Part shown: one piece after another, positions 1-62,815 of the stretch
Layout of the letters: each line of letters starts with the position of its first letter
Position numbering within the stretch: the stretch's first letter is position 1
NCBI GenBank assembly: GCA_963775955.1
Contig: CAVZKT010000002.1
Coordinates: forward strand, 7,994 to 71,993
DNA length: 64,000 bases
Origin: Candidatus Moraniibacteriota bacterium
Lineage (GTDB): Bacteria; Patescibacteriota; Minisyncoccia; Moranbacterales; UBA2206
Direction: 5' to 3'
Position numbers and translations under genes: made by a program
Notes under the pieces: model-generated
The model's input: only the letters and a program-made list of their open reading frames with translations
The model's database searches: none
What the model was told of the DNA's origin: nothing

Positions 1-553
1 CTTCCAGGTTGGTTTTAGGCGCTGGTTGTATTTTTATTTTATTTTCCAAATGCAAAATCAAATCAACCAAAGTGCCCACCGGAATAACTGTCAGATCCTC
101 AATAATGGAAGCCTCGGCGGCATTGTCGCGCGGCACATAAATTTCCGTGAGGCCTTTTTCTTTAGCTAAAATAGCCATCGGCAGGACGCCTTTTACCGGA
201 CGGACTTTGCCGTCCAGCGAGAGTTCGCCGAGAAATAATTTGTTGTGCCAGTCAAAGCTTATTTGCCCGGTCGTCAGAAGAAAACCCAAGGCCATCGGCA
301 GATCGTAAATTGGCCCTTCTTTTTTAAGATCGGCTGGAGCCAGATTGACGGTTACCCGGCCGCACTGGTGCGGGGGCTTAAATTTGCTGTTGCGGATAGC
401 CGCGCTGACGCGGTCGCGCGATTCCTTAACGGCGGCATCAGGCAATCCGACCACATTAAATTGATGCAAGTTGGCTTTGACCGTGTCGGCCTCAACTTCA
501 ATTAGCTCGCTTTTGAGTCCGATAGTAACGGCGGATAATATTTTTGAAGGCAT
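1..553 (-). CDS. comM: Mg-chelatase-like ATPase YifB/ComM, N-terminal part (gene continues past window start)
   Basis: Absent from the ORF track because it is open to the window edge. Reverse translation from ATG (complement of 551-553) gives MPSKILSAVTIGLKSELIEVEADTVKANLHQFNVVGLPDAAVKESRDRV...GELSLDGKVRPVKGVLPMAILAKEKGLTEIYVP, typical YifB/ComM N-domain. Confidence 0.8.
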   Translation of the reverse strand, partial: MPSKILSAVTIGLKSELIEVEADTVKANLHQFNVVGLPDAAVKESRDRVSAAIRNSKFKPPHQCGRVTVNLAPADLKKEGPIYDLPMALGFLLTTGQISFDWHNKLFLGELSLDGKVRPVKGVLPMAILAKEKGLTEIYVPRDNAAEASIIEDLTVIPVGTLVDLILHLENKIKIQPAPKTNLE

Positions 554-604
554 AAAAATTCATGGAACATGAAGCATGAAACATAAAACAATTTTTTAAA
601 TTGC

Positions 605-1021
605 TCATATTTCTTTTCTTTTTTGTTTCATGTTGTATGTTATATGTTTTATAATTAATAATATAACACCCGCGCAGATAAAAACATCCGCAATATTGAA
701 TAACGGCCAGATTTTAAAGTCAATGAAATCAGTGATACAGCCTAAATACAAGCGGTCTATAATATTGGAAACTGCACCGGACAGGATAAGTATTAAGCAT
801 AAAGTGTTGGGCATGAAGCATTTCTTGTATAAAAAAACTGTGAGTATGAAAATAATTATCAGCCAGAATGTCCAGAATAAAATATCAGGAATTTTTATGC
901 CGAAAGCAACGCCAGAATTGCAAATATAAAACCCGCCTAAATGGCGGATTAAAGATTTGCTTAACTGGTCAGCCAAGATTAAAAATGCGAAGAGTATGAT
1001 TTTATTTATTTTAAACATCAA
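605..1021 (-). CDS. lspA: lipoprotein signal peptidase (signal peptidase II)
   Basis: 138-aa polytopic ORF with SNIIDRL and FNIADVFI motifs of LspA. Confidence 0.85.
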   Translation of the reverse strand: MMFKINKIILFAFLILADQLSKSLIRHLGGFYICNSGVAFGIKIPDILFWTFWLIIIFILTVFLYKKCFMPNTLCLILILSGAVSNIIDRLYLGCITDFIDFKIWPLFNIADVFICAGVILLIIKHITYNMKQKRKEI

Positions 1022-3843: not shown

Positions 3844-3960
3844 TTTTTTATTTTTCGCCGGATTATTTTTTCGGCAAATTTTAAATTAAAAATAGAGACG
3901 CTTTGCGCATCTCTATTTTACAACGAAAACGGTTTTATTGCCAATGGTAAGCTGTGGATA

Positions 3961-6083
3961 TCATTTGATAATTTTTGCCGCCGCCTTGATGGACAAATTT
4001 ATCCGGCCCTGGCTGTCAATTTCCCGGACTTTGACCGGAACGATATCGCCGATTTGAACCACGTCTTCAACTTTTTCTACGCGGTGGTCAGCCAGTTCCG
4101 AAATATGAATCAAGCCTTCCTGCCCGGGCAGAATTTCCGCAAAGGCGCCGAAGTTCATAATACGGGTGATTTTAGCGTTGAATATTTCGCCGGCTTTTAC
4201 TTCGTGCGTCAGGTTATCAATCCATTCCTGCGCTTTTTTGGCGGCTACTGCGTCCGGAGAAGTGATAAAAACCGAACCGTCGTCCTCAATGTCAATTTGC
4301 ACGCCGGTTTCGTCAATAATAGCGTTGATAATTTTGCCTCCCGTGCCGATGACATTCCTGATTTTGTCCGGGTTAATCTTCATAATGATAATTCTTGGCG
4401 CATATTGGCTCATTTCCGCTCGCGGAGCAGGGATTGCAACCGTAATTTTCTCCATAATTTCCATTCTGTTTTCCCGGGATTGCTCCAGAACGGCCTTCAG
4501 CATTTCCAGCGTTACGCCATCCAACTTTACATCCATTTGCAGCGCTGTGATGCCGATTTCGGTGCCAGCCGCTTTAAAGTCCATGTCGCCATAATGGTCT
4601 TCCAATCCTTGGATATCGGTGAGAACTTTGAATTTTCCGTCATGTTCCCGACGATAATTCCCATGGCAATTCCGCTAACCGGGCTTTTGATTGGCACGCC
4701 GGCATCCATAAGCGACAGAGTTGATCCGCAAGTGGAAGCCATTGAAGAAGATCCATTGGAGGAAAGCATTTCGGAAACTAAAAGAATAGTGTAGGGAAAT
4801 TCATCTTTGGGAGGCAAAACTGGAACTAAAGCTTTTTCGGCCAGAGCGCCGTGGCCGACTTCGCGCCGTCCCGGTCCGCGCATCGGCTTCACTTCTCCCA
4901 CTGAATACGGAGGAAAATTGTAATGATGGATATATCTTTTTTTCATATCCACTTCCATTGTGTCAATCACCTGTTCATCGCCAGGAGAACCCAGAGTTGT
5001 GACAGTCAGAGCTTGTGTTTCTCCGCGGGTGAATAAGTCCGGTGCCGTGCGTTCTGGGCAAAATTCCAACTTGGCATGCAATTTGTCGAATTTCATTTAA
5101 TTTGCGGCCGTCCGGGCGTTGTTCTTTTTCCTAAAATATTCTGATGCACAATTTCATCCGAAGTTTCTTCAAAAACTTGCTCGGCAATTTCTTTTAATGT
5201 CTTTTCACGTTCGGAGCTTCTGGAAAAGTTTCTTTGATATAGGCGTTGACTTTTTCCTTGATAGCTTTGATTTTTTCCTCAATCACTTGCTTATCTTGGG
5301 TCATACAGGGCTTCAGCCAGGTTTTCTGCCAGCAAAATTTCTTTTATTTTAGCTTCAAATTCAGGCGTGCCTTGCAATAAGGCCGGTTCTGATTTGGCTT
5401 TGCCAACTTCTTTTTGAATATCTTCAATAAAAGCGGCAATTTTTTTGACGGCTTCATGGCCGAATTCAAAAGCTGGACAGAATTTCTGCTTCCGGAACTT
5501 CCTTGGCGGCTGTTTCAATCATATTGATTTTATCCTTGGTTCCGGAAAGCACGATGTCAAAATCTCCGTCCGTAGTTTCGCCATTGACCGGGTTCAAAAT
5601 AAATTCGCCCTTAACTCTGCCGATGCGCACCGCGCCAACCGGGCCGTTCCAAGGAATATTGGAAATAGAAAGGGCGGCGGAAGCGGCGATGATTGCCAAG
5701 ATATCCGGATCGTTTTCTCCATCATAAGAAAAAACCGTGACAATAACTTGCACTTCATTGCGCATCCGGTGGTTAAAAAGCGGGCGGATGGTGCGGTCAA
5801 CCATTCTTCCGGAAAGAACGGCGTCGTCCGAAGGGCGGCCTTCTCTTTTAATAAATCTTGAGCCTTTGATTTTTCCGGCGGCATAATATCTTTCTTCAAA
5901 ATCCACCATCAGCGGGAAATATCCGCTGATTCTGGACGCGCCTTTGCTCATAGTGGCGGCGGCTAAAACAACCGTGTCGCCATAGCGCACAGTTACTGAT
6001 CCATTGGCCTGTCCGGCTAAAAGCCCGGCTTCAACCTCAAGAATTCTCCCTCCGATTTGGAGAGACCATTTTTTATGTTCCAT
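3961..6083 (-). CDS. pnp: polynucleotide phosphorylase (interrupted by at least 3 frame changes)
   Basis: Fragments 5466-6083, 5291-5518, 4527-5096 and 3961-4605 give, in order, RNase PH domain 1, the helical linker, RNase PH domain 2 (RPDGR...[15 protein letters not shown]), then KH and S1 domains. Confidence 0.9.
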
Positions 6084-6333
6084 ATAGAACGTACTAGCCT
6101 TGCGCCAGCAACGTCATAAACACGATACTTATCTCGAGGCTCGTAACTCATAACTCATAACGATTCCGGGTCGGGTTACGGGTTATGCGTGTCGAGAGAA
6201 ATATTGTGCCTGTTACGCACTAGCAAAGACTGATTAATAAATTATTAAGTATTATGATCATATATTACTATGGGCATTTTGTCAAAAAGAAAGGGAGATT
6301 TTTAGTTTCCCGCACCTAATTTTCTTAGGTTTT

Positions 6334-8351: not shown

Positions 8352-8451
8352 CCCCGTTAGAGTTTTAATATGAATTATGCGGGGATAAAGCAGTAATCTT
8401 TTTTGGTTTTTCAATATTAAATAAATTTAATTTTGTAAAACTCTAACGGGG
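8352..8451 (+). repeat. CCCCGTTAGA-type inverted-repeat element (16-bp perfect arms)
   Basis: CCCCGTTAGAGTTTTA at 8352-8367 and TAAAACTCTAACGGGG at 8436-8451 flank an AT-rich 68-bp core. The right arm abuts the pcrA GTG start. Confidence 0.8.
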
Positions 8452-10715
8452 TGGAAAACGACATTCTAAAAAATCTGAATCCGGCGCAGAGGGAAGCCGT
8501 GGAAACCACTGAAGGGGCGGTTTTGATCATTGCCGGAGCCGGCTCGGGCAAGACCAGGGCGCTCACGCACCGCGTGGCCTATCTGATCAAAGAAAAAAAG
8601 ATTCCGCCGCGAAATATTCTGGCGGTGACTTTTACCAACAAAGCGGCGCAAGAAATGAAAGAACGAGTGCGGGTATTATTAGATGTTAATAACCAAAAAC
8701 TAAAAACTAAAAACTACGAACTTCCAATAATGGGCACTTTCCATTCTATCTGCGCGCGGATATTGCGCCACGAAATTGAAAAATTGGGCTATAAAAAAAC
8801 TTTCAATATTTTTGACGACCAGGACCAACTGGCGACGATGAAAAAGGCGATGAAGGAAAGTGAGATGGACATGGAGCAATTTAAACCGCAGGCGATGCTT
8901 AATGCGATTTCCAAAGCCAAGAATGAACTGATTGACGCGGCGACTACAGAGAATCCATCGGCAGTTATTATGAAGAAACGGTGTCCAAGGCCTATATTGC
9001 TTACCAAAAAAAACTCAAAGAGCAAAACGCGCTTGATTTTGACGATATTATCATGCTCACCGTCCAATTATTCCGGAAATTTCCGGAAATTTTGGAAAAA
9101 TACCAGAATTTTTTCCGCTATATCATGGTGGACGAATACCAAGACACTAATCGCGCGCAATATACCTTGATTAATATGCTAGCCAAAAGGAACGGCAACA
9201 TCTGCGTCGTGGGCGATGACTGGCAGGGTATATATTCCTGGCGCGGAGCGAACATCCAAAATATCCTGGATTTTGAAAAGGATTATCCTAGCGCCAAAGT
9301 CATAAAATTGGAGCAAAACTACCGTTCCACGCAGAACATTTTGGATGCGGCCTATGGCGTAATTTCCAAAAATATCAACCGCAAGGACAAAAAAATTTGG
9401 ACCCAGAGCGCCAGCGGACAACTCATAACCTCCTATGAAGCCGGAGATGAAAGAGATGAGGCGGAATTTGTGGTGAAGGAAGTTTTGCAAGAGAGAGAAA
9501 AAGAAAAACACAAATTTTCCGATTTTGTAGTTTTGTATCGTACCAACGCGCAATCCCGCATCATGGAAGAAGTGATGCTTCAAAATTCAATTCCCTATAG
9601 GATAATCGGCGGAATAAAATTTTATTTGCGCAAGGAAATAAAAGACATTATCGCCTATTTGCGCCTCATTCAAAATTTCAATGACGCGGTATCGCTGGAG
9701 AGAATAATAAATGAACCCAAAAGAGGCATTGGAGAAGTTACGCTTAAGCATTGGGTTGAAACTTTCAAAAGAAAATAATATTGATCTGATTAATTGCGGA
9801 TTTACAAATCCGAAATCCGAAATCCTAAATCCGAAATAAATTCAAATCCGCCAACCGGCGGACAAAATTCAAAAATCTCGACTGGAAAATATTTTTAAGT
9901 TTTGTGATTTTATCAAAAGGATGAATGAGGCGATCCGCAAATTGCCGCTGACTGATTTTATGGAAAAAGTCTTTGCAGAGTCCGGGTATGAAAAATTTCT
10001 TTTGGACGGCACGGAAGAGGGAGAAATGCGGCGGGAGAATATCCGGGAGCTGCTGACAGTGGCCAAAAAATACACAGAATATAAAGGCGAAGAAGCCCTG
10101 CGGATGTTTTTGGAAGAAGTCGCGCTGGCATCTGACACGGACAATGTGAACCAAAACCTGGATGCCGTGCACCTTATGACGCTTCACAGCGCCAAGGGAT
10201 TGGAATTTAAAGTCGTTTTTATTGCCGGCCTGGAAGAAGGAATCCTGCCTCATTCCCGCAGTATGCTGGATCAGGGCGAAATGGAAGAGGAAAGGCGGCT
10301 GATGTATGTCGGCATCACGCGCGCCAAAGAAAAAGTTTATCTGTTGTTTACCAGCCAGCGCAATATTTTTGGTTCCACGCAAGTTAATCCGCCATCAAGA
10401 TTTCTGGATGATATACCGCCGCACCTTGTGCGGAATTTCCAATTTCCAATTTCCAATTTCCAAACAAATTCCAAATTACAAAATCAAATCCAAAAATTTC
10501 CCCTCACCCGTCCCGATATACATCAGGACACCCTCTCCCGAAAGGAGAGGGAAATACGGAATAAAAACACTTTTAAAGATGGTGATAGGGTAAAACACAA
10601 AATTTTCGGCGAGGGCCTAATAGTTTCCTCGCAAGGCGATACACTCACAATCGCTTTTTCCAAATCCGGGCTAAAGAAGCTTTCCGCTTCCATCGCGCCG
10701 CTTAAGAAGATTTAG
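8451..10715 (+). CDS. pcrA: ATP-dependent DNA helicase PcrA/UvrD (interrupted: frame changes near 8941 and 9765, in-frame TAA at 9837)
   Basis: Fragments 8451-9170, 8981-9778 and 9921-10715. Motifs AGAGSGKT, TFHSICARIL, VDEYQDTN, VGDDWQGIYSWRGA, LEQNYRST, TLHSAKGLEF, MYVGITRAKE. Confidence 0.9.
9806..9837 (+). repeat. tandem heptamer repeat (AAATCCG)x4.5 inside pcrA
   Basis: AAATCCGAAATCCGAAATCCTAAATCCGAAAT, followed by hairpin TCCGCCAACCGGCGGA. Confidence 0.8.
10432..10498 (+). repeat. tandem heptamer repeat (TTCCAAT)n and derivatives inside pcrA C-terminus
   Basis: GGAATTTCCAATTTCCAATTTCCAATTTCCAAACAAATTCCAAATTACAAAATCAAATCC, translated as RNFQFPISNFQTNSKLQNQIQ. Confidence 0.8.
10499..10552 (+). 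repeat. double-hairpin GC-rich element, copy in pcrA
   Basis: TCCCCTCACCCGTCCCGATATACATCAGGACACCCTCTCCCGAAAGGAGAGGG, same architecture as 25343-25390 and (inverted) 12796-12845. Confidence 0.75.
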
Positions 10716-11940: not shown

Positions 11941-12071
11941 GGGCGCTGTCAGGAGGGCATATTTTGCTGATCTTAAGCCAAAATAGCCTTTTATAAATTT
12001 TTTGATCTTCGACCATTTTCAATTGTGGTAACTTGGTGTATGATGAAAATGTAAATGTCGCACAATAAATT

Positions 12072-12150
12072 CTCGTAACTCGACTCTCATAACTCGCAAC
12101 AAATCGGACTGGAAATAAAATAGTGTCAAGTTGCGGGTTGCGAGAGTCGA
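12072..12150 (+). repeat. heptad-word hairpin (CGTAACT family) in the xerC-like 5' leader
   Basis: CTCGTAACTCGACTCTCATAACTCGCAAC ... GTTGCGGGTTGCGAGAGTCGA. The arms pair with G:U at the transition differences. Confidence 0.75.
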
Positions 12151-22568: not shown

Positions 22569-22674
22569 AAACACACGGTTAATTATTAAGAAAATAGAAT
22601 ATTGGGAATGATTTAATTCCCATGAACCTTTCTTAATAATTTCCTTTCGACAGGAAATTTTTTAAATTTATAAT

Positions 22675-22750
22675 CTACAAAATTACAAAAAAATATAAAA
22701 CTACAAAAACAACTTTTTGTATTTTTGTAAAAATTTGTAAGTTCGTAGAG
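22675..22750 (+). repeat. low-complexity word hairpin in the rpsA leader
   Basis: CTACAAAATTACAAAAAAATATAAAACTACAAAAACAAC / TTTTTGTATTTTTGTAAAAATTTGTAAGTTCGTAG. Confidence 0.6.
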
Positions 22751-25081: not shown

Positions 25082-26108
25082 ATGAGAAATTTAGTTAAAA
25101 CAATCCAAAATACGGCGTTTCAACAGGGGCTTTGGCAGAAAGGGTCAAGGATTATTTTAGGTGTGTCAGGCGGGCCGGACTCGGTTTGCCTGTTGGATGT
25201 GATGGCAAAAATCGCGCTGAAATATGATTTGGAACTGATTGTTGCGCATGTAAATTACGGGTTGCGCGGGAAAGATTCAGAGAAAGATAAAGAGTTTGTG
25301 AGAGAACTGGCAGAGAAATACGGAATTGGAATTGAAGTTTTGCACCCTCATCCGCCCTTCGGGCACCTTCTCCCTAAAAAGGGAGAAGGGGGTTAGGAAA
25401 ACTCGTTCAGAGAACGAGTTACGTTTGATTCGTTACAGATTTTTTGAAAAAGTTCGCCAGGAAAATAAATTTGATTCCATTGCGGTGGCGCATAACGCCG
25501 ATGACCAGGTGGAAACATTTTTAATGCGCGTTATTCGCGGATCCGGCCTCGCGGGACTTTCGGCGATGAAATACAAAAATAATCCGCCGCGGCGGATCAT
25601 CCGCCCGCTGCTGGGAATTTCGCGAAAGGAGATTCTGAAGTATTTGAATAAAACGAATAGAACTTATCGGACGGATAGGACAAACAAGGAAAATTTATTT
25701 TTGCGGAATAAAATCCGAAACCAGCTGATTCCGTATCTGGAAAAAAATTTCAATCCTCAGATTAAAAAAACAATTTTTAGTTCAGTCGGTTCAATTGCCG
25801 AAGACGCGGATCTTTTGGAAAAAATCGCGGAAGAAGTTTATGGGACGGATAGGACAAATAAGACGGATAAAGCAAGTAGTTTGTCTGTTAAAAAATTGAT
25901 GGCTCTGCATCCGGCGTTGCAAAGAAGAATAATTTTAAAAGCCATTTGCAAAGTAAAAAGGGATCTGAAGGACATCGACGCGGCGCACGTGGAAGAAATT
26001 TTGAAAGCGCTTAAAAGCACTAAGGGCAAACGCCAAAGCGTGGCATTTAAAGGGTTGAAATTGACACGCATTGGTGATAAGGTTATAATAACAACTCATA
26101 GCACATAA
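25082..26108 (+). CDS. tilS: tRNA(Ile)-lysidine synthetase (frame change next to an inserted element, about 25335)
   Basis: PP-loop GVSGGPDSVCL, then ...IRYRFFEKV...VAHNADDQVETFLMRVIRGSG...IIRPLLGISRKEI. Confidence 0.88.
25343..25390 (+). repeat. double-hairpin GC-rich element, copy in tilS
   Basis: CACCCTCATCCGCCCTTCGGGCACCTTCTCCCTAAAAAGGGAGAAGGGGG, with hairpins GCCCTTCGGGC and CCTTCTCCC/GGGAGAAGG. Confidence 0.75.
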
Positions 26109-26138
26109 CACGTAACACATAACATATAACATAATAAA
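26097..26138 (+). repeat. tandem heptads CATAACA/CGTAACA/CATAACA/TATAACA/TAATAAA abutting the ftsH ATG
   Basis: Period-7 phasing read directly at 26104-26138. Overlaps the tilS stop. Confidence 0.75.
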
Positions 26139-28010
26139 ATGAAAAATTTAGCCAAAAATATTATCCTGATGTTATTTCTTTTCCTGCTTATTTCCGGGCT
26201 GTTTGTGCTATATTCAGGACCAGCCAAAAAGCCGGCCGAAGTGGCTTTAAGCGCGCTGGTGGCGCAGATTAATGAGGGCAAAGTAAAGAAAATTAGCGTG
26301 GATAATAATGATTTGAACATCACGCTCGCGGACGAAACAGCGGAAAAATCAACCAAAGAACAGGAAACCGGGCTCACGGAATCTCTTAAAAACTACGGAG
26401 TGGACCAGGAAAAACTAAACGCAGTGAATATTGAAATTAAGGGGCCGTCGTCAACTTCGATGTGGTTGGGCACTATTTTGCCCTTTCTTCTGCCCTTTAT
26501 ATTAATTGCGGCCTTTATTTGGTTTATGCTGCGTCAGGCGCAAAGAGGAAACTCCCAGGCTTTGTCTTTTGGAATGTCACGCGCGCGCATGACTGATCCG
26601 AAGGATAAAAAAAATCGGGTGACTTTTGCCGATGTGGCCGGAGCTAAAGAGGCCAAGGAAGAACTCCGGGAAATCGTCGAGTTTTTGAAAAGCCCGGGCA
26701 AGTTTTTAAAACTGGGAGCTAAAATTCCCAAAGGCGTCCTTTTGCTGGGGCCTCCAGGAACGGGAAAAACTTTGATTGCCAAAGCTGTGGCCGGAGAGGC
26801 TAATGTGCCGTTTTTCAATATCAGCGGATCGGAATTTGTGGAAATGTTTGTGGGTGTCGGCGCTTCACGCGTGCGCGATCTTTTCAAGCAAGCCAAGAAA
26901 AACGCGCCGGCCATTGTTTTCATTGATGAAATTGACGCTGTCGGGCGCCATCGCGGAGCGGGGCTAGGCGGCGGACATGATGAACGGGAACAGACTTTGA
27001 ATCAGATCCTGGTAGAAATGGACGGTTTTGACACCACAACCAATGTAATTGTTGTGGCGGCTACCAATCGCCCTGATGTTTTGGATCCGGCGTTGCTGCG
27101 GCCTGGACGCTTTGACCGGCGCGTGGTTATGGATTTACCCGACATTGAAGAAAGGCTGGCAATTCTCCAAATTCACTCTAAAAACAAGCCTTTTGAAGAA
27201 AAGGTTAATTTACGCGTGATTGCCGAAAGAACCTCCGGATTTTCCGGCGCTGATCTTTCCAATTTAGTTAATGAGGCAGCGATTCTGGCTGCCCGGCGGG
27301 GAAAAAAGCAGGTTGAAATGGCGGAGCTTACTGAAGCAATTGAAAAAGTTATTCTGGGGCCGGAAAGAAAAAGCCGGATAATTGACGAGCAGGAAAAGAA
27401 AATTATCGCTTATCATGAAGCCGGACATGCTCTTTTGGGAGCCAGTCTTCCGCACGCCGATTCGGTGCAAAAAGTTTCTATAATTTCCCGCGGCCAGGCT
27501 GGAGGCTACACGCTGTCTGCTCCGGAAAAAGACCGCCGGTTGCATTCCAAAAATTATTTTCTGTCAGAGCTGGCCGTCCTTTTGGGAGGATATGTAAGCG
27601 AAGAAATAATTTTTGGCGAGGTTACGACCGGCGCGTCCAATGATTTAGAGCGGGCAACCGCGATGGCGCGCAATTTGGTGACCAGGTTCGGAATGAGCGA
27701 ATTGGGCCCGCGAACCTTCGGACACAAAGAAGAACTGGTTTTTTTGGGCCGGGAAATTTCCGAGGAAAAAAATTATTCCGAAAAAACCGCCGAGGATATT
27801 GATAAGCAGGTGGCTAAATTTATCGGTGAAGCGCACAATACGGCTGAAAAAATTATTCAGGAAAAGAAAGAGATCCTGGAAAAAATTGTCAGCGTGCTGA
27901 TCGAGAAAGAAGTCATTGAACAGGATGAGTTTAATGAAATAGTTGGACTTAAAAAAAGAGAACATAAAATTGAAGAGAAAAAAGCGGATACAAAAACAAA
28001 AATCGCTTAA
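26139..28010 (+). CDS. ftsH: ATP-dependent zinc metalloprotease FtsH
   Basis: [23 protein letters not shown], 623 aa. Confidence 0.95.
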
Positions 28011-32318: not shown

Positions 32319-33852
32319 ATGATCAAAAAAATTCCAACTCAAGTCATTGAAGTTTTACAAAAACTGGAAGAATCAGGCTTCGAGGCTTTTATCGTGGGCG
32401 GATGCGTGCGGGATTTGCTCACATTGTGGTGAGCCTGTGAACCAAAAGACTGGGATGTAGCGACTAATGCCAAGCCGGAAGAAGTGCAAAAAATATTCCC
32501 GGACAGTTTTTATGAAAATGAATTTGGAACGGTCGGAGTGAAAGTAAAGCCGTTTATTAAAAATGGAAATCCGAATCGTGAGCATGACGTGATAGAAGTA
32601 ACCACCTATCGCATTGAATCGAAATATTCCGACAAGCGCCGGCCGGATAAAGTTGAATTTGCAAAAACATTAGAGGAAGATTTATCAAGAAGGGATTTTA
32701 CCATCAACGCGATCGCATTAAAACTCGTAACTCATAACGCACAACTCGACACCCGAAGAGGAAAAAATAGCTACGAGCTACGAGCTATGGGTTACGAGAT
32801 CATTGATCCATATGATGGTCAGAAAGATATTAAGAAAAAAATAATCCGCGCAGTGGGTGACCCGCATGAAAGATTTGATGAAGATGCTTGCGGATGATGC
32901 GAGCGGTGCGGTTTCACGCGGAGCTGGGATATAAAATTGAAAAAAATACTTTTGAAGCCATTAAAAAAATATAGCCGGGGATTTAAAACACATTGCTCTT
33001 GAAAGAATAAAAGACGAACTGGCCAAAATTATATTATCCGACAATCCATGCTGAAGGCATTGATATGCTGCATAAAACTAAATCTTCTGGAATATATTAT
33101 TCCGGAATTGGAAAAGGGCGTGGGCGTGAAACAAAACCGCCATCATATCTATACGATATACAAACACAGCATTTTATCTTTAAAACATTGTCCTTCGCAA
33201 AAAATTGGAAGTGCGCTTGGCTGCGCTTCTGCATGACATTGCTAAGCCGCAAACCAAAAGAGGCGAAGGCGAATATGCGACTTTCTATAACCACGATCAT
33301 GTGGGTGCGCGGGTGGCGGCCAAAATTCTTGAGCGTCTGCGTTTTTCACGTGAAACAATTGAAAAGGTGAAACTTCTCGTGGATAATCATATGTTTTATT
33401 ACAATCCGGAAGAAGTGGGAGCCAGTTCCGTCAGAAAATTAATTCAAAAAGTCGGCTTGGAAAATATGAAAGATTTGATTGATGTGCGCATTGCCGATCG
33501 TTTGGGTTCGGGCGTGCCGAAGGCCAAGCCGTATAAATTGCGCCACTTGGAATATATGATTGAAAAAGTTTCCCACGATGCCATTTCCGTAAAGATGCTA
33601 AAAATCAACGGCAATGATCTGATGAAAGAATTAAATTTAAAACCCGGTCCCAAAATCGGCGCGATTCTGGATGTTTTGCTCTCGGAAGTTATTGAAGATG
33701 CTTCCAAAAATAATCGCGAGCATCTTTTAACGCGCGCTAAAGAATTGGATAAGGAGGATTTGAAAAAACTCCGCCAGATGGCGAAGGTAAAGATTGAAGA
33801 GAAAAAAGAAGAGGAAGACAAGGAAATTAAGAGAAAACATTGGGTGAAGTAG
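32319..33852 (+). CDS. cca: CCA-adding enzyme / poly(A) polymerase family with HD domain (5-6 frame changes)
   Basis: Pieces: MIKKIPTQVIEVLQKLEESGFEAFIVGGCVRDLL / PKDWDVATNAKPEEVQKIF...RDFTINAIAL...IIDPYDGQKDIKKKIIRAVGDPHERFDEDA / LRMMRAVRF.. / ...LAALLHDIAKP...YNHDHVGA. Confidence 0.85.
32724..32798 (+). repeat. 75-nt heptad-word hairpin inserted in frame in cca
   Basis: CTCGTAACTCATAACGCACAACTCGAC...AGCTACGAGCTACGAGCTATGGGTTACGAG encodes VTHNAQLDTRRGKNSYELRAMGY between the conserved RDFTINA and IIDP motifs. Confidence 0.8.
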
Positions 33853-34129: not shown

Positions 34130-34230
34130 CATAAAATTGGTGCGGGGCAGGTTGCAGGGGTCAGTGGTCCGAGTCCGCTAGTGACCACAAATACTAAAAA
34201 CCAAATACAAAAAACTAAAAACTAACCAAA

Positions 34231-34846
34231 ATGGCTTCGCAAGTTTCCCACATAATTTACGCCCGCAAATATTTCGAAAAAAATCCGGCTTTGCCTAATT
34301 TTGAAGATGAATTTATGCTGGGCTGTGTTTTTCCGGACATCCGCCGGATTGACGAAAGTATAAAAAGAAAAGACACGCATCGCTGTTTTTCGCCGCTGGA
34401 TTTGAATTTTTCAGGACTTTCTCCGTTCCAGGCCGGCTGGAAATTTCATTTGTATTGCGATATGAAGCGGGAGGAGATTTTAAATAAATATAAATTTTAT
34501 GAAATTCCCGGAACTGCTGATTTTTGGCACCAGTCAGCCAAACAACTGGAAGATGAAATTATTTATGAAGAGTATAATAATTGGGAAAAAGTCGTGCATT
34601 ATTTCAATAATGTTCCAAAGATAGAAATAGGCATAGGATGTTACACATGAAACTTTCCAGCTGTGGTATGCGATAATCGCCAAATATATTGAGAAAAAAC
34701 CGGACAACAAATCAGCGCATATTTTTTTATCAAAACAACTGTCATGGGCGGAAAAAGCCGACGATATAGTCAAATCAGTTGACAATTTGCGCAAAAATGA
34801 GAGAGTTATAGGGATACTCAGGAAGGTGAAGGATGAAATATTATAG
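34231..34846 (+). CDS. hypothetical protein (one frameshift near 34645)
   Basis: ORF 34231-34650 continues as HETFQLWYAIIAKYIEKKPDNKSAHIFLSKQLSWAEKADDIVKSVDNLRKNERVIGILRKVKDEIL in another frame. Confidence 0.5.
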
Positions 34847-35146: not shown

Positions 35147-35217
35147 CGGGATATAGTATAGTGGTAGTACGCGCGATTCGGGTTCGTGAAGTCCCAGTTC
35201 GATTCCGGGTATCCCGA
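35147..35217 (+). tRNA. tRNA-Pro(CGG)
   Basis: CGGGATA-TA-GTAT-AGTGGTA-GTAC-G-CGCGA-TTCGGGT-TCGTG-AAGT-CCCAG-TTCGATT-CCGGG-TATCCCG-A (one A:C in the T-stem). Confidence 0.8.
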
Positions 35218-35449
35218 CATCGAAAAATTTAACGGGGTGAAGGTGGGTGTAGACCGGGTTCGATTCCCGGCATCCCGACCGAAAATTTAACAGGGTGAAG
35301 GTTCGTGAAAACCGGGCTCGCCCCGCGCCATTTCTCGGGATAATTGTGGTTTTATTAGGCATTAAGGCGAAGCCGCTTCGCTTTAGTTCTGATGAATATC
35401 ACAGATTATGTTTGGAAATGGTGCGGGGTGAAATTCCCGGCATCCCGAC

Positions 35450-35834: not shown

Positions 35835-36776
35835 ATGAAAAAAATATCAGTTACCAAAATTAACGCAGGCAATCGCCTTGACAAATTCCTCGCCAGGGAA
35901 TTTTTTTCGCTTGGATTAACGCGGGGAGAAATAATACGAAATATAAAGTCGGGGAATATATTAGTTAATAAAAACAAAGTTAAGCCAAGCTATCAGCTTC
36001 GTCTTAATGACGAAATAAGATTCAAGATACAAGATACAAAAAGCGAATTAGTCAAAAATCAAAACCTGAAAATAAAAATAATTTATCAGGACAAAAACAT
36101 TATTGTTATAGACAAACCGGCCGGTACTTCTGTCCATCCTGCGAAAGCTGACGAGAAAAATACTTTAGTAAATTTTTTAGTTTACAAATTTCCAGAAATA
36201 AAAAATGTGCATGATAACACCAAGGACTCTTATTTGCGTCCAGGGATTGTGCATAGATTAGACAAGGATACTTCCGGTGTGATGGTTGTGGCGAGAAATA
36301 TAAAAGCTTTTCAAGAACTGAAGAATTTGTTTAAAGAACATAAGGTTGAAAAAAAATATCTGGCGCTGGTTTACGGAAAATTAAAAGATAAAAAAGGCGT
36401 GATTGAAAAGCCGATTGCGCGCGCGGCGACTTATAAAAAACAGGTGATTGCCGGACGGAAAACCAAAACCAAAATCCGCGAAGCCGTGACGAGATATAAA
36501 GTTATCAAAGAATATCAAAACTATTCATTGGTTGAGGCTATGCCCAAAACCGGAAGAATGCACCAAATTCGGATCCATCTTTTTTCCATCGGCCATCCGA
36601 TTGTCGGGGATAAAATTTATAAAACAAAGAGGAGAGACATTCCACAGGGAGTTGCTCGCCAGCTTTTACACGCTAAAAGCCTGAGTTTTAAGCTGCTAGG
36701 CAAACAATATAATTTTCAAGCAGATCTGCCGGAAGACTTTTCAAAACTTCTGATGGGGTTGACTAAAGGAGCATAA
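35835..36776 (+). CDS. rluD: RluA-family 23S rRNA pseudouridine synthase (RluD-like)
   Basis: S4-like N-terminus, HRLDKDTSGVMVVA, GRMHQIRIHL. ATG at 35835 avoids overlap with the tRNA. Confidence 0.85.
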   Translation: MKKISVTKINAGNRLDKFLAREFFSLGLTRGEIIRNIKSGNILVNKNKVKPSYQLRLNDEIRFKIQDTKSELVKNQNLKIKIIYQDKNIIVIDKPAGTSVHPAKADEKNTLVNFLVYKFPEIKNVHDNTKDSYLRPGIVHRLDKDTSGVMVVARNIKAFQELKNLFKEHKVEKKYLALVYGKLKDKKGVIEKPIARAATYKKQVIAGRKTKTKIREAVTRYKVIKEYQNYSLVEAMPKTGRMHQIRIHLFSIGHPIVGDKIYKTKRRDIPQGVARQLLHAKSLSFKLLGKQYNFQADLPEDFSKLLMGLTKGA

Positions 36777-42566: not shown

Positions 42567-43394
42567 TTATTTTGAATCCCTTAATTTTTTTAGAAGTTTT
42601 ATGTCCTCCTCCACTTCCGGCCATTCGGTTTCGCAGAGCATGTCAATATTATTTTTTTTAGCGAAGGCGGCGATGTTTTCAAAAGCTTTGAGGCCGATTT
42701 TACCTTTGCCTATGTGTTCGTGGCGGTCTTTATTGGAACCGCAATCAGATTGGCTGTCGTTGGCGTGGATGAGTTTTATATTTTCAATCCCAATGTCTTT
42801 GTCAACTTTTTTAATTGCAGTTTCAAAATCCCGCCAATCATATCCTGATGCAAAAGAATGCTGGGTGTCCAAGCAAATGCCGGCTATGGCGGGGCTTTTC
42901 ACGCCGTCAATAATTTCTTTCAATTCTTTCAAATCATCACCGATAATTTCTCCCGCGCCGGCGCTGTTTTCCAATAATAATCTAGTGCTTCCGGAATATC
43001 CTTCCAAAGTTTTTTTGAGCATCTCAATGGTTTTTTTTATGGCTTCTATTTGACCAAGATCTTTGGCAGTGCCAATGTGGGTCATGACATATTTGGCGCC
43101 GAGGAGGCTGCCTCTTTCCAGTTCATCGCGGATAGTTTTTACAGATCCATAGCGAATGCGGCTATTAGCAGAAGCCAGGTTGATATAGTAGGGGGTGTGA
43201 ATATAGACATCTCGTAACTCGTAACTCGTAACTCTTAACTTAAATTCATGAATTAATTCAGGAGTTAACTCTGGCGCTTTGCCGCCCTGGGGCGCGCGGG
43301 TGAAAATTTGAATGACTTCGCATCCTAAAGCATGCCCGTTCTTAGGGGCGTTCCAAATTCCGCCGGCGATGGAAACATGACAGCCGATGTGCAT
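42567..43394 (-). CDS. nfo: endonuclease IV
   Basis: IGCHVSIAGG, HTPYYINLAS, ENSAGAG, CLDTQHSFASGYD, HANDS. Contains the (GAGTTAC)x3 repeat encoding LRVTSYELRD. Confidence 0.88.
   Translation of the reverse strand: MHIGCHVSIAGGIWNAPKNGHALGCEVIQIFTRAPQGGKAPELTPELIHEFKLRVTSYELRDVYIHTPYYINLASANSRIRYGSVKTIRDELERGSLLGAKYVMTHIGTAKDLGQIEAIKKTIEMLKKTLEGYSGSTRLLLENSAGAGEIIGDDLKELKEIIDGVKSPAIAGICLDTQHSFASGYDWRDFETAIKKVDKDIGIENIKLIHANDSQSDCGSNKDRHEHIGKGKIGLKAFENIAAFAKKNNIDMLCETEWPEVEEDIKLLKKLRDSK
43211..43239. repeat. tandem heptamer CTCGTAA/CTCGTAA/CTCGTAA inside nfo
   Basis: CTCGTAACTCGTAACTCGTAACTCTTAAC. Confidence 0.8.
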
Positions 43395-48002: not shown

Positions 48003-48560
48003 ATGGATATGGAGAACAACTCAACTTTTGACGTAAAATTTCTTAATCCGCAAGCGGTGATTGACCAGCTGGATATCCGGGATGGAATGAAAATTGCGGA
48101 CTTCGGTTGCGGAGCCGGACATTTTTCTGTGGTGGCGGCTAAAAAAGTCGGGGAAAAAGGAGTGGTTTTTGCAATTGACATTTTGCCTGAGAAACTGGAA
48201 ACAGTGCAGAGCCAGGCAAAAAATTTGAGCCTTACTAATATTTTGGTCAAACGGGAAAATTTGGAGCTGGAAAACGGCTCCAAATTGCCGGACAAAAGCG
48301 TTGATTGGGTAATAATTAAAGATATGCTTTACCAGAATAAAGAAAAAGGAAAAATTCTCTCTGAGGCCAAAAAAATTCTGGCGGAAAAAGGAAAAATTTT
48401 AGTGGTGGAATGGATAATAGAAGACACTTCTATCGGTCCCTCAAAAGAATTGCGCATCAGCAAAGACGACTTGATAGATTTGGCGCAAAAAAACGGGCTG
48501 GGAGTTCTTAAGGAAGTCAGCGCGGGCGATTTTCATTATGGGCTGGTGCTTATAAAGTAG
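48003..48560 (+). CDS. class I SAM-dependent methyltransferase
   Basis: IADFGCGAGHFS motif I, 185 aa. Confidence 0.7.
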   Translation: MDMENNSTFDVKFLNPQAVIDQLDIRDGMKIADFGCGAGHFSVVAAKKVGEKGVVFAIDILPEKLETVQSQAKNLSLTNILVKRENLELENGSKLPDKSVDWVIIKDMLYQNKEKGKILSEAKKILAEKGKILVVEWIIEDTSIGPSKELRISKDDLIDLAQKNGLGVLKEVSAGDFHYGLVLIK

Positions 48561-48578
48561 AAAGTATAAAGCAGATTA

Positions 48579-51567: not shown

Positions 51568-51639
51568 ATATTCACGAAGCATGTAGCGTAAAACATGGAA
51601 CATAAAACAATAAAGTAAATAATAAATAATAAAATAAAT

Positions 51640-54930: not shown

Positions 54931-55704
54931 TATTTTATCCTCCTGTTCTGGTATCTTTCTTTGGCTTTCTCGAAGTAGCTCAAAGAGCTTTTGTCGAGTT
55001 CGGCTAGGTTTTCTTTTTGACCTTCCGTAATACTTTTACCTGCCTGAATTGCTGCACCGCTGGTGGCTTTTACAACCCTTCGCAATGTTTCAGGAATCGT
55101 TGCTTTCTTTTTCTCGGAGATCAGCGAAAAAACATTTTTCCCCTGAAGAAATAAAACTTTTTCTTCAGGCTTGTCTCGCTTGAGAAGTTCTTTGAAAAAT
55201 TTCTCCCGCGAGAACGAAACCTTTTTCGTAATCAGTAAACGATGTTTCTTCCCGAGGACCAGTTTCCCCCTTTTTTGGATTTTGGGATTTTTTAGTTTCC
55301 CGCTTTAACTGCTGGACGATATGTGCTACAAAAAGCACATAAGCTTCCGCTTTTTTGGGATTCTGGTTGCGCAGATAGACTTCAAAGTCGTCTATCTTTG
55401 CTCGATCATCCGTCGTAAGCTTTGCCTCGGTTGAATAAAGCGCGGCGGCATAAACTATTTCATCCGCTACGCTTTTACTGGCTGCTGCCGTGTCAAAACC
55501 GAGAATAGTTTCTAATTTTTTAGTAAGCTTCTCGGCTCCTTTCTCACTTAGCTTCTGAAAGGCTGTTTTCAGAATAATACCAAAAACCGGTATTGCCGTG
55601 AGTGCTGTTACCCAGCGATCAATTTTTTCAAATTTACCCGGGCCTCTTCTTCCTTCTTCCTTCTTTTCGTCAGTCATAATAAACCTCCTTCGCCTTTTCG
55701 GCAT
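54930..55704 (-). CDS. hypothetical membrane-anchored protein (frameshift near 55200)
   Basis: ORF 55165-55704 continues in another frame as ELLKRDKPEEKVLFLQGKNVFSLISEKKKATIPETLRRVVKATSGAAIQAGKSITEGQKENLAELDKSSLSYFEKAKERYQNRRIK. Confidence 0.45.
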
Positions 55705-61184: not shown

Positions 61185-61364
61185 AATAAAAAACAGCCCC
61201 GAAGGGCTATTTCCGACCACGTTCCTATGCTGGATGTCCCAGCCACACCACCATCCGGTGATAGTTCAGAATACAGGTCTTTGTGCTTATAATACTAGCA
61301 TAACTAAAAAATATTTCAAGTTAAATTGTCCACAGCCTAAAATATGGCTTAAATAAGGAATTTT

Positions 61365-62679: not shown

Positions 62680-62815
62680 TCAAAAATCCAAAATTCAAAA
62701 TCTCAAATTCCAAATAAATCACAATGACCAAAATCAAAAATTTTAAACTGTTTTGAATTTAAAAAATTCGAATTTGGAATTTATTTAGGATTTGTAATTT
62801 ATAATTTGTAATTTT
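62680..62815 (+). repeat. low-complexity word hairpin in the tig-clpP spacer
   Basis: CAAAAATCCAAAATTCAAAATCTCAAATTCCAAATAAATC ... GAATTTGGAATTTATTTAGGATTTGTAATTTATAATTTG. Confidence 0.7.

Follow-up and report, generated by a model that had tools for sequence, protein, structure and literature searches.

The 64-kb stretch of Candidatus Moraniibacteriota DNA analyzed here (referred to as the window) carries, inside its cca gene (positions 32319-33852, + strand), a hairpin built from tandem 7-nt words, and arrays of the same design recur at other sites in the window. The gene encodes a class II CCA-adding enzyme with an HD domain, based on three-frame translation, comparison with solved enzymes (PDB 6ibp and 1miv) and homologues. 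Our data indicate that the cca segment and its kin are probably heptameric simple-sequence repeats (SSRs) of approximately 3 to 6 units, some of which have an adjacent inverted copy that makes them quasi-palindromes or hairpins, and that they arose as by-products of copying slips. The window elements belong to a known class, heptameric SSRs with inverted pairs; what is new is the host group, the unusually frequent translation of the arrays and the recurrent site in cca.

Probable growth of the cca and pnp hairpins in place

An inverted-repeat search and folding place the arms of the cca hairpin at 32724-32748 and 32774-32798 (+ strand), separated by a 25-nt loop. The hairpin encodes LVTHNAQLDTRRGKNSYELRAMGYE and lies in frame within a continuous open reading frame (ORF; 32484-32897). 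A preliminary description of this DNA had called the segment a 75-nt in-frame insertion between two conserved motifs. We found that the addition is in frame, but that its net size is 54 nt relative to the closest relatives and approximately 63 nt relative to the canonical spacing. Compared with solved CCA-adding enzymes in the PDB, the segment amounts to approximately 21 extra residues between RRDFTINA and IIDP. The distance from RRDFTxNA to EDALR is 64 residues in the window, while it is 42-44 residues in 51 of the 53 enzymes from outside the Candidate Phyla Radiation (CPR) in which the motif pair was located (the exceptions have 49 and 62). The hairpin falls at the beta-turn that links motif B to motif C. 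In an AlphaFold2 model of a homologue with a very similar insert (P0026; mean predicted local distance difference test score, pLDDT, 87.5), the insert is predicted to lie between strands 134-137 and 160-163 with a pLDDT of 48-63, and the remaining domain scores above 90.

Comparison with relatives allowed old and new sequence to be told apart. The closest cca relatives are L142 (81% identical), L143 (79%) and L145 (72%), together with a syntenic 28-kb relative contig. No cca hairpin is present in L142, L143, L145, L146 or L154, where the site reads IALKLKNSDYEIVD, and the gap at the site is 25 nt in the 28-kb relative versus 79 nt in the window. In nucleotide sequence, the relatives have TTAAAACT-AAAAAATAGCGAC-TACGAA, while the window reads TTAAAACT, 36 new nucleotides, AAAAAATAGC, TACGAGC TACGAGC TATGGGT and TACGAG, in that order. 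The new 36-nt block (32726-32761, + strand), which supplies the 5' arm (CGTAACT CATAACG CACAACT CGACA...) and part of the loop, has no counterpart in L142, L143, L145 or the 28-kb relative. It is followed by the ancestral AAAAAATAGC (32762-32771, + strand; codons K-N-S), which has been kept and now lies in the hairpin loop; the same 10-mer stands at the homologous place in L142, L143 and L145 (AAAACTAAAAAATAGCGACTACGAA). The three added heptads (32772-32792, + strand; 21 nt or 7 codons), where the relatives have a single TACGAR or TATGAA, copy the ancestral TACGAG (Tyr-Glu) at 32793-32798, which is the seed of the 3' arm, and the 5' arm is an approximate reverse complement of the 3' arm units. 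Because ancestral bases survive in the loop and at the base of the 3' arm, the cca hairpin probably grew in situ, by slippage of units and production of an inverted copy.

The 5' leader of pnp contains a heptad hairpin with the same pattern (6132-6199, - strand; found by folding), downstream of a promoter-like site at 6285-6257 (- strand). Here, a 62-nt block (6140-6201) stands in place of 12 nt in the relative, the leader is otherwise conserved, and the BLAST alignment of the relative ends at 6139. In the outer stem of the hairpin, ancestral TCGAGA pairs with newly made TCTCGA. Since ancestral bases lie inside the loop or stems, a single-block insertion is an unlikely source of the cca and pnp hairpins. 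Judged by alignment, both patterns would be the signature of slippage plus template switching, and not of a single-block insertion with target-site duplication. As a separate observation, pnp leader positions 6085-6135 and 6202-6290 (- strand) and the promoter-like -35 box are well preserved in a relative of 72-80% identity (contig positions 19990-20215); the conserved part includes a small stem (6110-6092) and may be a conserved pnp regulatory leader.

We propose that these elements would form and persist in four steps. A local proto-repeat (the Tyr-Glu TACGAG in cca, ATAACC in the pnp leader) would first be amplified in 7-nt steps by replication slippage. An intrastrand or strand-switching template switch would then copy the array, along with some flanking ancestral bases, in reverse complement and so produce the second arm. 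Comparison of relatives suggests that turnover would be fast, with survival only where arrays are tolerated, namely in A-rich 5' untranslated regions (UTRs) without a Shine-Dalgarno sequence, in spacers, and in protein loops or linkers. Finally, intragenic arrays have to keep the reading frame, and their sequences show a mutated unit where TAA would fall in frame. Three successive heptads in coding sequence pass through all three reading frames. A run of CTCGTAA CTCATAA would put TAA in frame in the third unit; in its place the window has CGCACAA and the (CGCATAA)n array of L001 has CGCAAAA. The cca array of L158 has CTCGCAA ten times, opposite GAGTTAC, and in the nfo array of the window the stop-free strand, TTACGAG, is the one translated.

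Period-7 arrays in the window and in other Patescibacteria

The preliminary description had listed heptad tandem words at seven coordinates and read them as one family of hairpins, with one member given as a single arm. All seven arrays are present. Four of them, at the 3' end of lspA, in the pnp leader, in the leader of a xerC-like gene and in cca, fold well beyond shuffled controls, with z-scores of -3.5 (552-655), -4.8 (6132-6199), -6.6 (12080-12150) and, for 32724-32798, -3.8 (+ strand) and -4.8 (- strand). The other three (26093-26131, 43211-43240 and 51573-51608) are single arrays that form no hairpin (z-score approximately 0 versus shuffled sequence). Instead of one family, we found at least three word groups (CNCRTAA, CATGRAA and ACACATA), and the list was incomplete: the window has at least eight further arrays made of other words, among them those at 8687, 9806, 10434, 34189, 36017, 48554 and 62683. 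Convergent array pairs that form stem-loops number five in the window (552-655, 6132-6199, 12072-12150, 32724-32798 and 62683-62805).

Among the hairpins outside cca and pnp, a CATGRAA/TTTYATG hairpin (552-655, - strand; inverted-repeat search, folding and Pfam Peptidase_A8) spans the lspA stop codon at 605-607, and part of it is translated as the lspA C-terminus. The leader of the xerC-like integrase gene (Pfam Phage_integrase), which has a promoter-like site at 12016-12044, contains CTCGTAA CTCGACT CTCATAA CTCGCAA opposite GTTGCGG GTTGCGA GAGTCGA (12072-12150, + strand; folding). The spacer between tig and clpP holds a hairpin of AAAATYC units and inverted GAATTTG/GGAATTT units (62683-62805, + strand; Tandem Repeats Finder, TRF, and folding).

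Single arrays are found both in leaders and in genes. In the ftsH 5' UTR, 5.6 units of ACACATA/ACACGTA (26093-26131, + strand; TRF) make up essentially the whole region between a promoter with the perfect sigma-70 consensus TTGACA-17-TATAAT (26061-26089; 12/12 in the promoter scan) and the ATG at 26139. A degenerate CATGRAA-type array (51573-51608, + strand; sequence, folding and Pfam scan) lies in the 5' UTR of a gene that resembles pilins of the type IV secretion system (ATG 51640) and shares CATGGAACAT and CATAAAACAAT with the array at 561. Directly upstream of start codons are (AAAAACT/AAATACT)5.3 (34189-34225, + strand; TRF), which stops 5 nt before ATG 34231, and (AAAGTAG)3.1 (48554-48575, + strand; TRF), which stops 3 nt before ATG 48579; at the former site the relative carries another array, (ACGGAAT)2, such that the place is kept and the sequence is not. 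The pcrA/uvrD-like helicase contains three arrays: (AAAAACT)4.3 (8687-8716, + strand; TRF and PDB alignment), an 8-residue insertion relative to PcrA; (AAATCCG)4.6 (9806-9837, + strand; TRF), preceded by one inverted unit (GCGGATTT); and (AATTTCC)4.3 followed by degenerate AAATYCN units (10434-10494, + strand; TRF). The first lies in an insertion loop and the third in the variable C-terminal linker, both permissive sites. Another array, (AAGATAC)3.3 (36017-36039, + strand; TRF and Pfam scan), occupies the linker between the S4 and catalytic domains of an rluD-like pseudouridine synthase. The nfo array (43211-43240, - strand; TRF) is (CTCGTAA)4.3 when written for the + strand; the nfo sense strand has TTACGAG and encodes LRVTSYELRD. 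The array had been taken for an insertion, but it aligns without gaps to solved endonuclease IV, and its length is unchanged in a 73%-identical relative.

Overall, arrays lie in or form the 5' UTRs of ftsH, pnp, the xerC-like gene, the ORFs starting at 34231, 48579 and 50048, and the pilin gene. Those of cca, the helicase (all three), the rluD-like gene, nfo and the lspA C-terminus are translated, with in-frame occupation of tolerant sites in cca, the helicase, the rluD-like gene and nfo. In 17 start regions that we inspected, the leaders are A/T-rich and no clear Shine-Dalgarno sequence was seen.

The property common to these arrays is their period and not their word. Exact tandem runs in the window number six at period 7 and zero or one at each other period from 4 to 15. 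With a threshold of at least 3 copies, TRF reported 10 period-7 arrays in the window; other CPR loci yielded 6 over 383 kb and non-CPR DNA 2 over 897 kb. The window arrays are non-overlapping head-to-tail arrays of 3.1-5.6 copies each. In 655 kb of CPR DNA, we found 50 arrays at period 7 versus 5, 13 and 2 at periods 6, 8 and 9, and the arrays of the window and of the CPR DNA use many different heptad words. The syntenic 28-kb relative has eight period-7 arrays with words wholly unlike those of the window, and at orthologous sites in a 72-80% identical relative the array is present, absent or made of a different word. Near-identical viral contigs differ by whole units, with (CTCATAA)3 versus 4 and 2 versus 4 (L083, L097 and L098 vs L101; L093 and L095 vs L104; L086, L103 and L106). 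We also observed that several of these viral arrays stop directly before an ATG, like the 5' UTR arrays of the window.

Within the window, CTCRTAACTCRTAA has 15 matches with up to 2 mismatches versus 0.85 expected. Singletons of CTCRTAA outside arrays are not enriched in the window (14 versus 12.3 expected), and a dispersed binding motif was rejected on these counts. A word-specific family across organisms was likewise rejected: (CTCRTAA)3 occurs in 30 viral-contig stretches, compared to 26 and 4 for the same-composition controls (CTACTAA)3 and (CCTATAA)3. Since one such control is about equally common, CTCRTAA is not special outside the source genome. Three regularities of form were seen as well. 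Array length is often near 30 nt (4.3 units) irrespective of the word, and the 5' arm of the hairpins is always the A/C-rich array, both in the window and in the other loci; the A/C-rich form of single arrays in the window lies nearly always on the + strand (leading, G>C), including in the minus-strand genes nfo and ORF 55165-55704.

Our data indicate that heptad arrays have an exceptional hot spot, the beta-turn that joins motifs B and C of the CCA-adding enzyme in Patescibacteria. Across 67 non-window Patescibacteria loci, 16 of the 40 period-7 arrays lie in the linker between these motifs, which makes up 0.59% of the bases (binomial p ~1e-25), where hot spot is meant relative to the surrounding DNA and not to equally tolerant loops of other universal proteins. 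Arrays at this site in independent genomes include (CGCATAA)4 with an inverted arm (L001), AAAACCT (L002), AAGTTAA (L005), CTTCAAG (L014), AACAAAC (L144), AAATCCC (L149, L152 and L153) and AATTTCC with ATACGAN (L150), with further arrays in L155, L158, L159 and L161, and several of the 3' arms are built on local TACGAR codons. Approximately half of the 120 best cca homologues have extra residues at the turn, with spacings of 46-108. Other, G+C-rich palindromic repeat elements occupy the loop in L151, L172, L176/L177, P0030, P0068 and P0103; their translations include VTLRRKEKGLGRDSSPTVQNDK, CHPERSEGSRDSS..AQNDR and SFPRRRESR and look like dispersed repeat families read in frame. A second variable cca loop, between the VKV strand and EVTTYR (alignment columns ~105-135), has inserts in several lineages and, in L158 (1189-1223), a (CAGGAAA)5 array.

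Heptameric SSRs are over-represented in many bacteria, according to the summary of Mrazek et al. 2007 given in PMC4692102. In Xanthomonas, convergent heptamer pairs can form stem-loops, and heptamer slippage has been proposed to be tied to the polymerase footprint (PMC4692102). The window arrays resemble the cyanobacterial STRR (short tandemly repeated repetitive) sequences of Calothrix and Nostoc and the GGGAATC repeats of Xanthomonas (PMC4692102) in their 7-nt unit, in arrays of approximately four units, in the presence of several words per genome, and in an excess over other periods. They also share the enrichment near gene starts and ends, the frequent convergent stem-loop pairs, and the variation in length and sequence between close relatives. 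They differ in that approximately half of the window arrays lie inside essential genes and are translated, in their Patescibacteria host, in the cross-lineage hot spot in one protein loop, and in their words, which are A/C-rich and not G-rich, so that G-quadruplexes cannot explain them. A literature search for heptanucleotide repeats in Patescibacteria found nothing.

Competing explanations and related systems

Several observations weigh against heptameric slippage as the full account. The word CNCRTAA recurs at the unlinked positions 6140, 12072, 26095, 32724 and 43211, and CATGRAA at 561 and 51573; similar words occur in other genomes, including CTCGCAA/GAGTTAC (L158), CGCATAA (L001) and AATTTCC (L150). 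Such a common vocabulary would not be expected if slippage were purely local and started from unrelated seeds, and it is a hint of ectopic templating, of a word-biased mechanism or of selection. Part of it can be put down to the avoidance of stops in translated arrays, but this does not account for the non-coding copies. Permissiveness of the cca turn does not by itself account for 16 of 40 arrays in 0.59% of bases. Moreover, the 7-nt step takes its explanation from a published hypothesis, slippage in the source organism is a mechanism that we infer, and the arrays directly upstream of start codons, which are kept in place and not in sequence, could have a function. An unlikely alternative takes up these points together: the arrays would be written by a word-biased, possibly templated mechanism, the cca B-C turn would be a hypervariable arm driven by slippage, and the pre-start arrays would be selected leaders that replace the Shine-Dalgarno sequence. 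If true, this would explain the vocabulary common to unlinked loci and genomes, and it would give an essential enzyme of tRNA maturation a site of built-in diversification at the cca turn.

We next consider whether the hairpins are functional RNAs selected in the transcript, such as processing or RNase III sites, mRNA stabilisers, attenuators or translational pause signals. This possibility draws on the significant folding z-scores, on the location of the pnp and xerC-like hairpins in 5' UTRs downstream of promoter-like sites, and on the recurrence of arrays just before start codons, with the position kept for ORF 34231. In the pnp leader of Escherichia coli, a hairpin is cleaved by RNase III. 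The preliminary description had gone further and argued for selection on an RNA structure in one orientation, since arm mismatches seemed almost all to be transitions that keep G:U pairing on the + strand. Our counts do not bear this out: G:U-compatible mismatches number 10 on the + strand versus 8 on the - strand, and transitions equal transversions (18 each). Folding is also usually better in antisense. The cca hairpin has a predicted energy of -23.0 kcal/mol as mRNA (+ strand) and -31.1 kcal/mol as antisense (- strand), the tig-clpP hairpin -20.3 (sense, + strand) and -32.6 (antisense, - strand), and the antisense is also the more stable form for the pnp-leader and lspA hairpins. Only the xerC-like hairpin, one of the five, is stronger as sense, and the energies follow gene orientation and not the + strand. 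Among 19 cca-loop inserts of other genomes, antisense is more stable in 14, with a mean difference of 4.5 kcal/mol, and sense in 5 (Wilcoxon p = 0.008). The opposite tendency, with sense slightly more stable, holds for 591 control windows of these genes (Mann-Whitney p = 0.0007). No Rfam family matches the window heptad hairpins, and a terminator role (G+C-rich stem plus T-run) was rejected, as a scan of four hairpins showed no overlap with a terminator-like site. Relatives of 72-81% identity lack the hairpins and keep the flanks, so conservation lends no support to a functional RNA. Because the sense-strand stems are weakened by A.C mismatches, the mRNA hairpin would be tolerated or counter-selected rather than selected. 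Overall, the palindromes look like DNA-level products whose form in the transcript has been worn down as stops were removed, through the A-richness of sense strands, or by selection against structure, and we regard an RNA function as quite unlikely.

Comparably improbable is that the arrays are copies of a small mobile palindromic element, such as a MITE (a miniature transposable element with inverted repeats), a REP/REPIN or an element like those of Rickettsia, with a transposase encoded elsewhere. In-frame palindromic insertions are known in Rickettsia. For Coxiella, such insertions are reported in PMC5896051. Within our data, this explanation would fit one word family at at least five loci, the 15-nt identity between 6140 and 32724, and the clearly different palindromic elements that occupy the same cca loop in the genomes named above. 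However, only the heptad word is common to the copies, with ends, length and loop all different; no target-site duplications or terminal repeats were found at the copies, and single copies of the word show no enrichment. In addition, ancestral sequence lies inside the cca loop and in the cca and pnp stems, the cca segment consists of two new blocks that flank the kept AAAAAATAGC, arrays without an inverted partner outnumber hairpins, and close relatives carry different words.

It is somewhat more doubtful still that the cca insert is maintained for the protein, as a variable-length arm of the head domain useful in Patescibacteria for which slippage merely generates length variation. The extended turns of approximately half of the 120 closest homologues (46-108 residues versus 42-44) are consistent with such an arm, as are the near absence of extension in non-CPR enzymes (2 of 53 measurable loci), the concentration of 16 of 40 arrays in the loop, and the maintenance of frame and avoidance of stops. 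Yet inserts of different lineages bear no relation to each other in sequence or length, the closest relatives are almost without insert, the insert is predicted to be disordered, and other palindromic junk is found at the same site. Finally, it is scarcely credible that the features are artefacts of an error-prone, frameshift-rich assembly, since like arrays occupy the same cca site in independent NCBI, JGI and ENA assemblies (L001, L002, L005, L014, L144 and L149-L161) and the checked frameshifts lie outside arrays, even though cca and pnp have many frameshifts and the helicase is split into several ORFs, most plausibly by the same kind of error.

Heptameric slippage with palindrome growth, the reading we prefer, can be set beside other systems. 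Phase-variable heptanucleotide contingency repeats are known, e.g., in the hmw promoters of Haemophilus influenzae and in neuO of E. coli K1. There too, unit number changes by slippage and a coding frame is kept only by multiples of three units, but the window genes are housekeeping genes, the arrays are short and interrupted, and there is no sign of on/off switching. In quasipalindrome-associated template-switch mutagenesis, as modeled in E. coli, the classical cases put right a few bases of an imperfect palindrome that is already there. The likeness lies in an arm that is made or extended as the reverse complement of adjacent older sequence, with ancestral bases in the cca and pnp stems; unlike those cases, the window has 36-60 nt of new sequence plus tandem amplification of units. 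Rickettsia palindromic elements and the Coxiella MITEs of PMC5896051 are likewise hairpin DNA translated in frame at tolerant surface sites of conserved essential proteins, but they are dispersed mobile elements of at least 100-150 bp with a family consensus, while the window hairpins are short, variable in word, without common termini, and contain ancestral sequence. REP/REPIN elements with RAYT transposases (PMC3116915, PMC3733652) share with the window hairpins the form of short, dispersed imperfect palindromes in many copies; they are extragenic, whereas many window copies are intragenic, have tandem-heptad arms, and lack a common stem or GTAG/CGTC tag.

If this reading holds, essential conserved enzymes in the smallest bacterial genomes gain peptide segments through 7-nt slippage and palindrome growth, filtered by frame and surface tolerance. 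Such gain would parallel that by Rickettsia palindromic elements, with no need for a mobile element, and would extend the poorly studied phenomenon of heptameric SSRs to the CPR. For annotation, heptad segments should not be taken for riboswitch-like RNAs, inteins or misassemblies. Puzzlingly, one loop of the CCA-adding enzyme gathers 40% of the heptad arrays found around it.

Source DNA, gene integrity and other repeats

Close protein matches of the window cca and pnp all come from Patescibacteria/CPR (Paceibacteria, Moranbacteria, Wolfebacteria and similar). A cyanobacterial origin, hinted at by a GCGATCGC site beside the hairpin, was ruled out, as every protein match is from Patescibacteria. 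The Pfam scan covered 10 window ORFs.

In the record, three-frame translation spreads cca over three reading frames, with frameshifts and one in-frame TGA at ~32427-32429; we noted that this TGA sits within a small CTCAC...GTGAG palindrome. The pnp gene (~3900-6083) and the pcrA-like helicase gene (8451-10715) are also frameshifted, each split into several ORFs, and genes of the syntenic relative contig are broken in similar fashion. The single cca frameshift inspected base by base reads GCTTGCGG, while GCTTTGCGG would hold the frame, which resembles a homopolymer one base short. We treated the frameshifts as assembly errors, a reading that the sequence suggests; all those checked lie outside the heptad arrays.

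Several other features of the window were noted. The 3' part of a tRNA-Pro gene (GTTCGATTCCCGG(T/C)ATCCCGAC) is duplicated along with approximately 35 nt downstream (35147-35320; 58-nt period, 2.1 copies), which resembles the scar of integration into a tRNA gene. An Rfam match to the DUF3800-IX RNA (61211-61279, - strand; 48.8 bits versus a gathering score of 36.8) lies just upstream of the trigger-factor gene. An A-rich hairpin at 22674-22749 (z-score -4.5) is not heptadic; its arms are tandem repeats of period 8-10 (CTACAAAA / TTACAAAAAA). A second, unrelated repeat family consists of the mini-palindrome TCCGCC-N2-4-GGCGGA, with 13 copies in the window versus 0.04 expected (7735, 9847, 13111, 22331, 23991, 25583, 29018, 37476, 37844, 37949, 39613, 43555 and 51058). 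A/T flanks are common among these copies (ATCCGCC...GGCGGAT), and their coordinates put some close to tRNA genes or the ends of genes and others apparently within genes.

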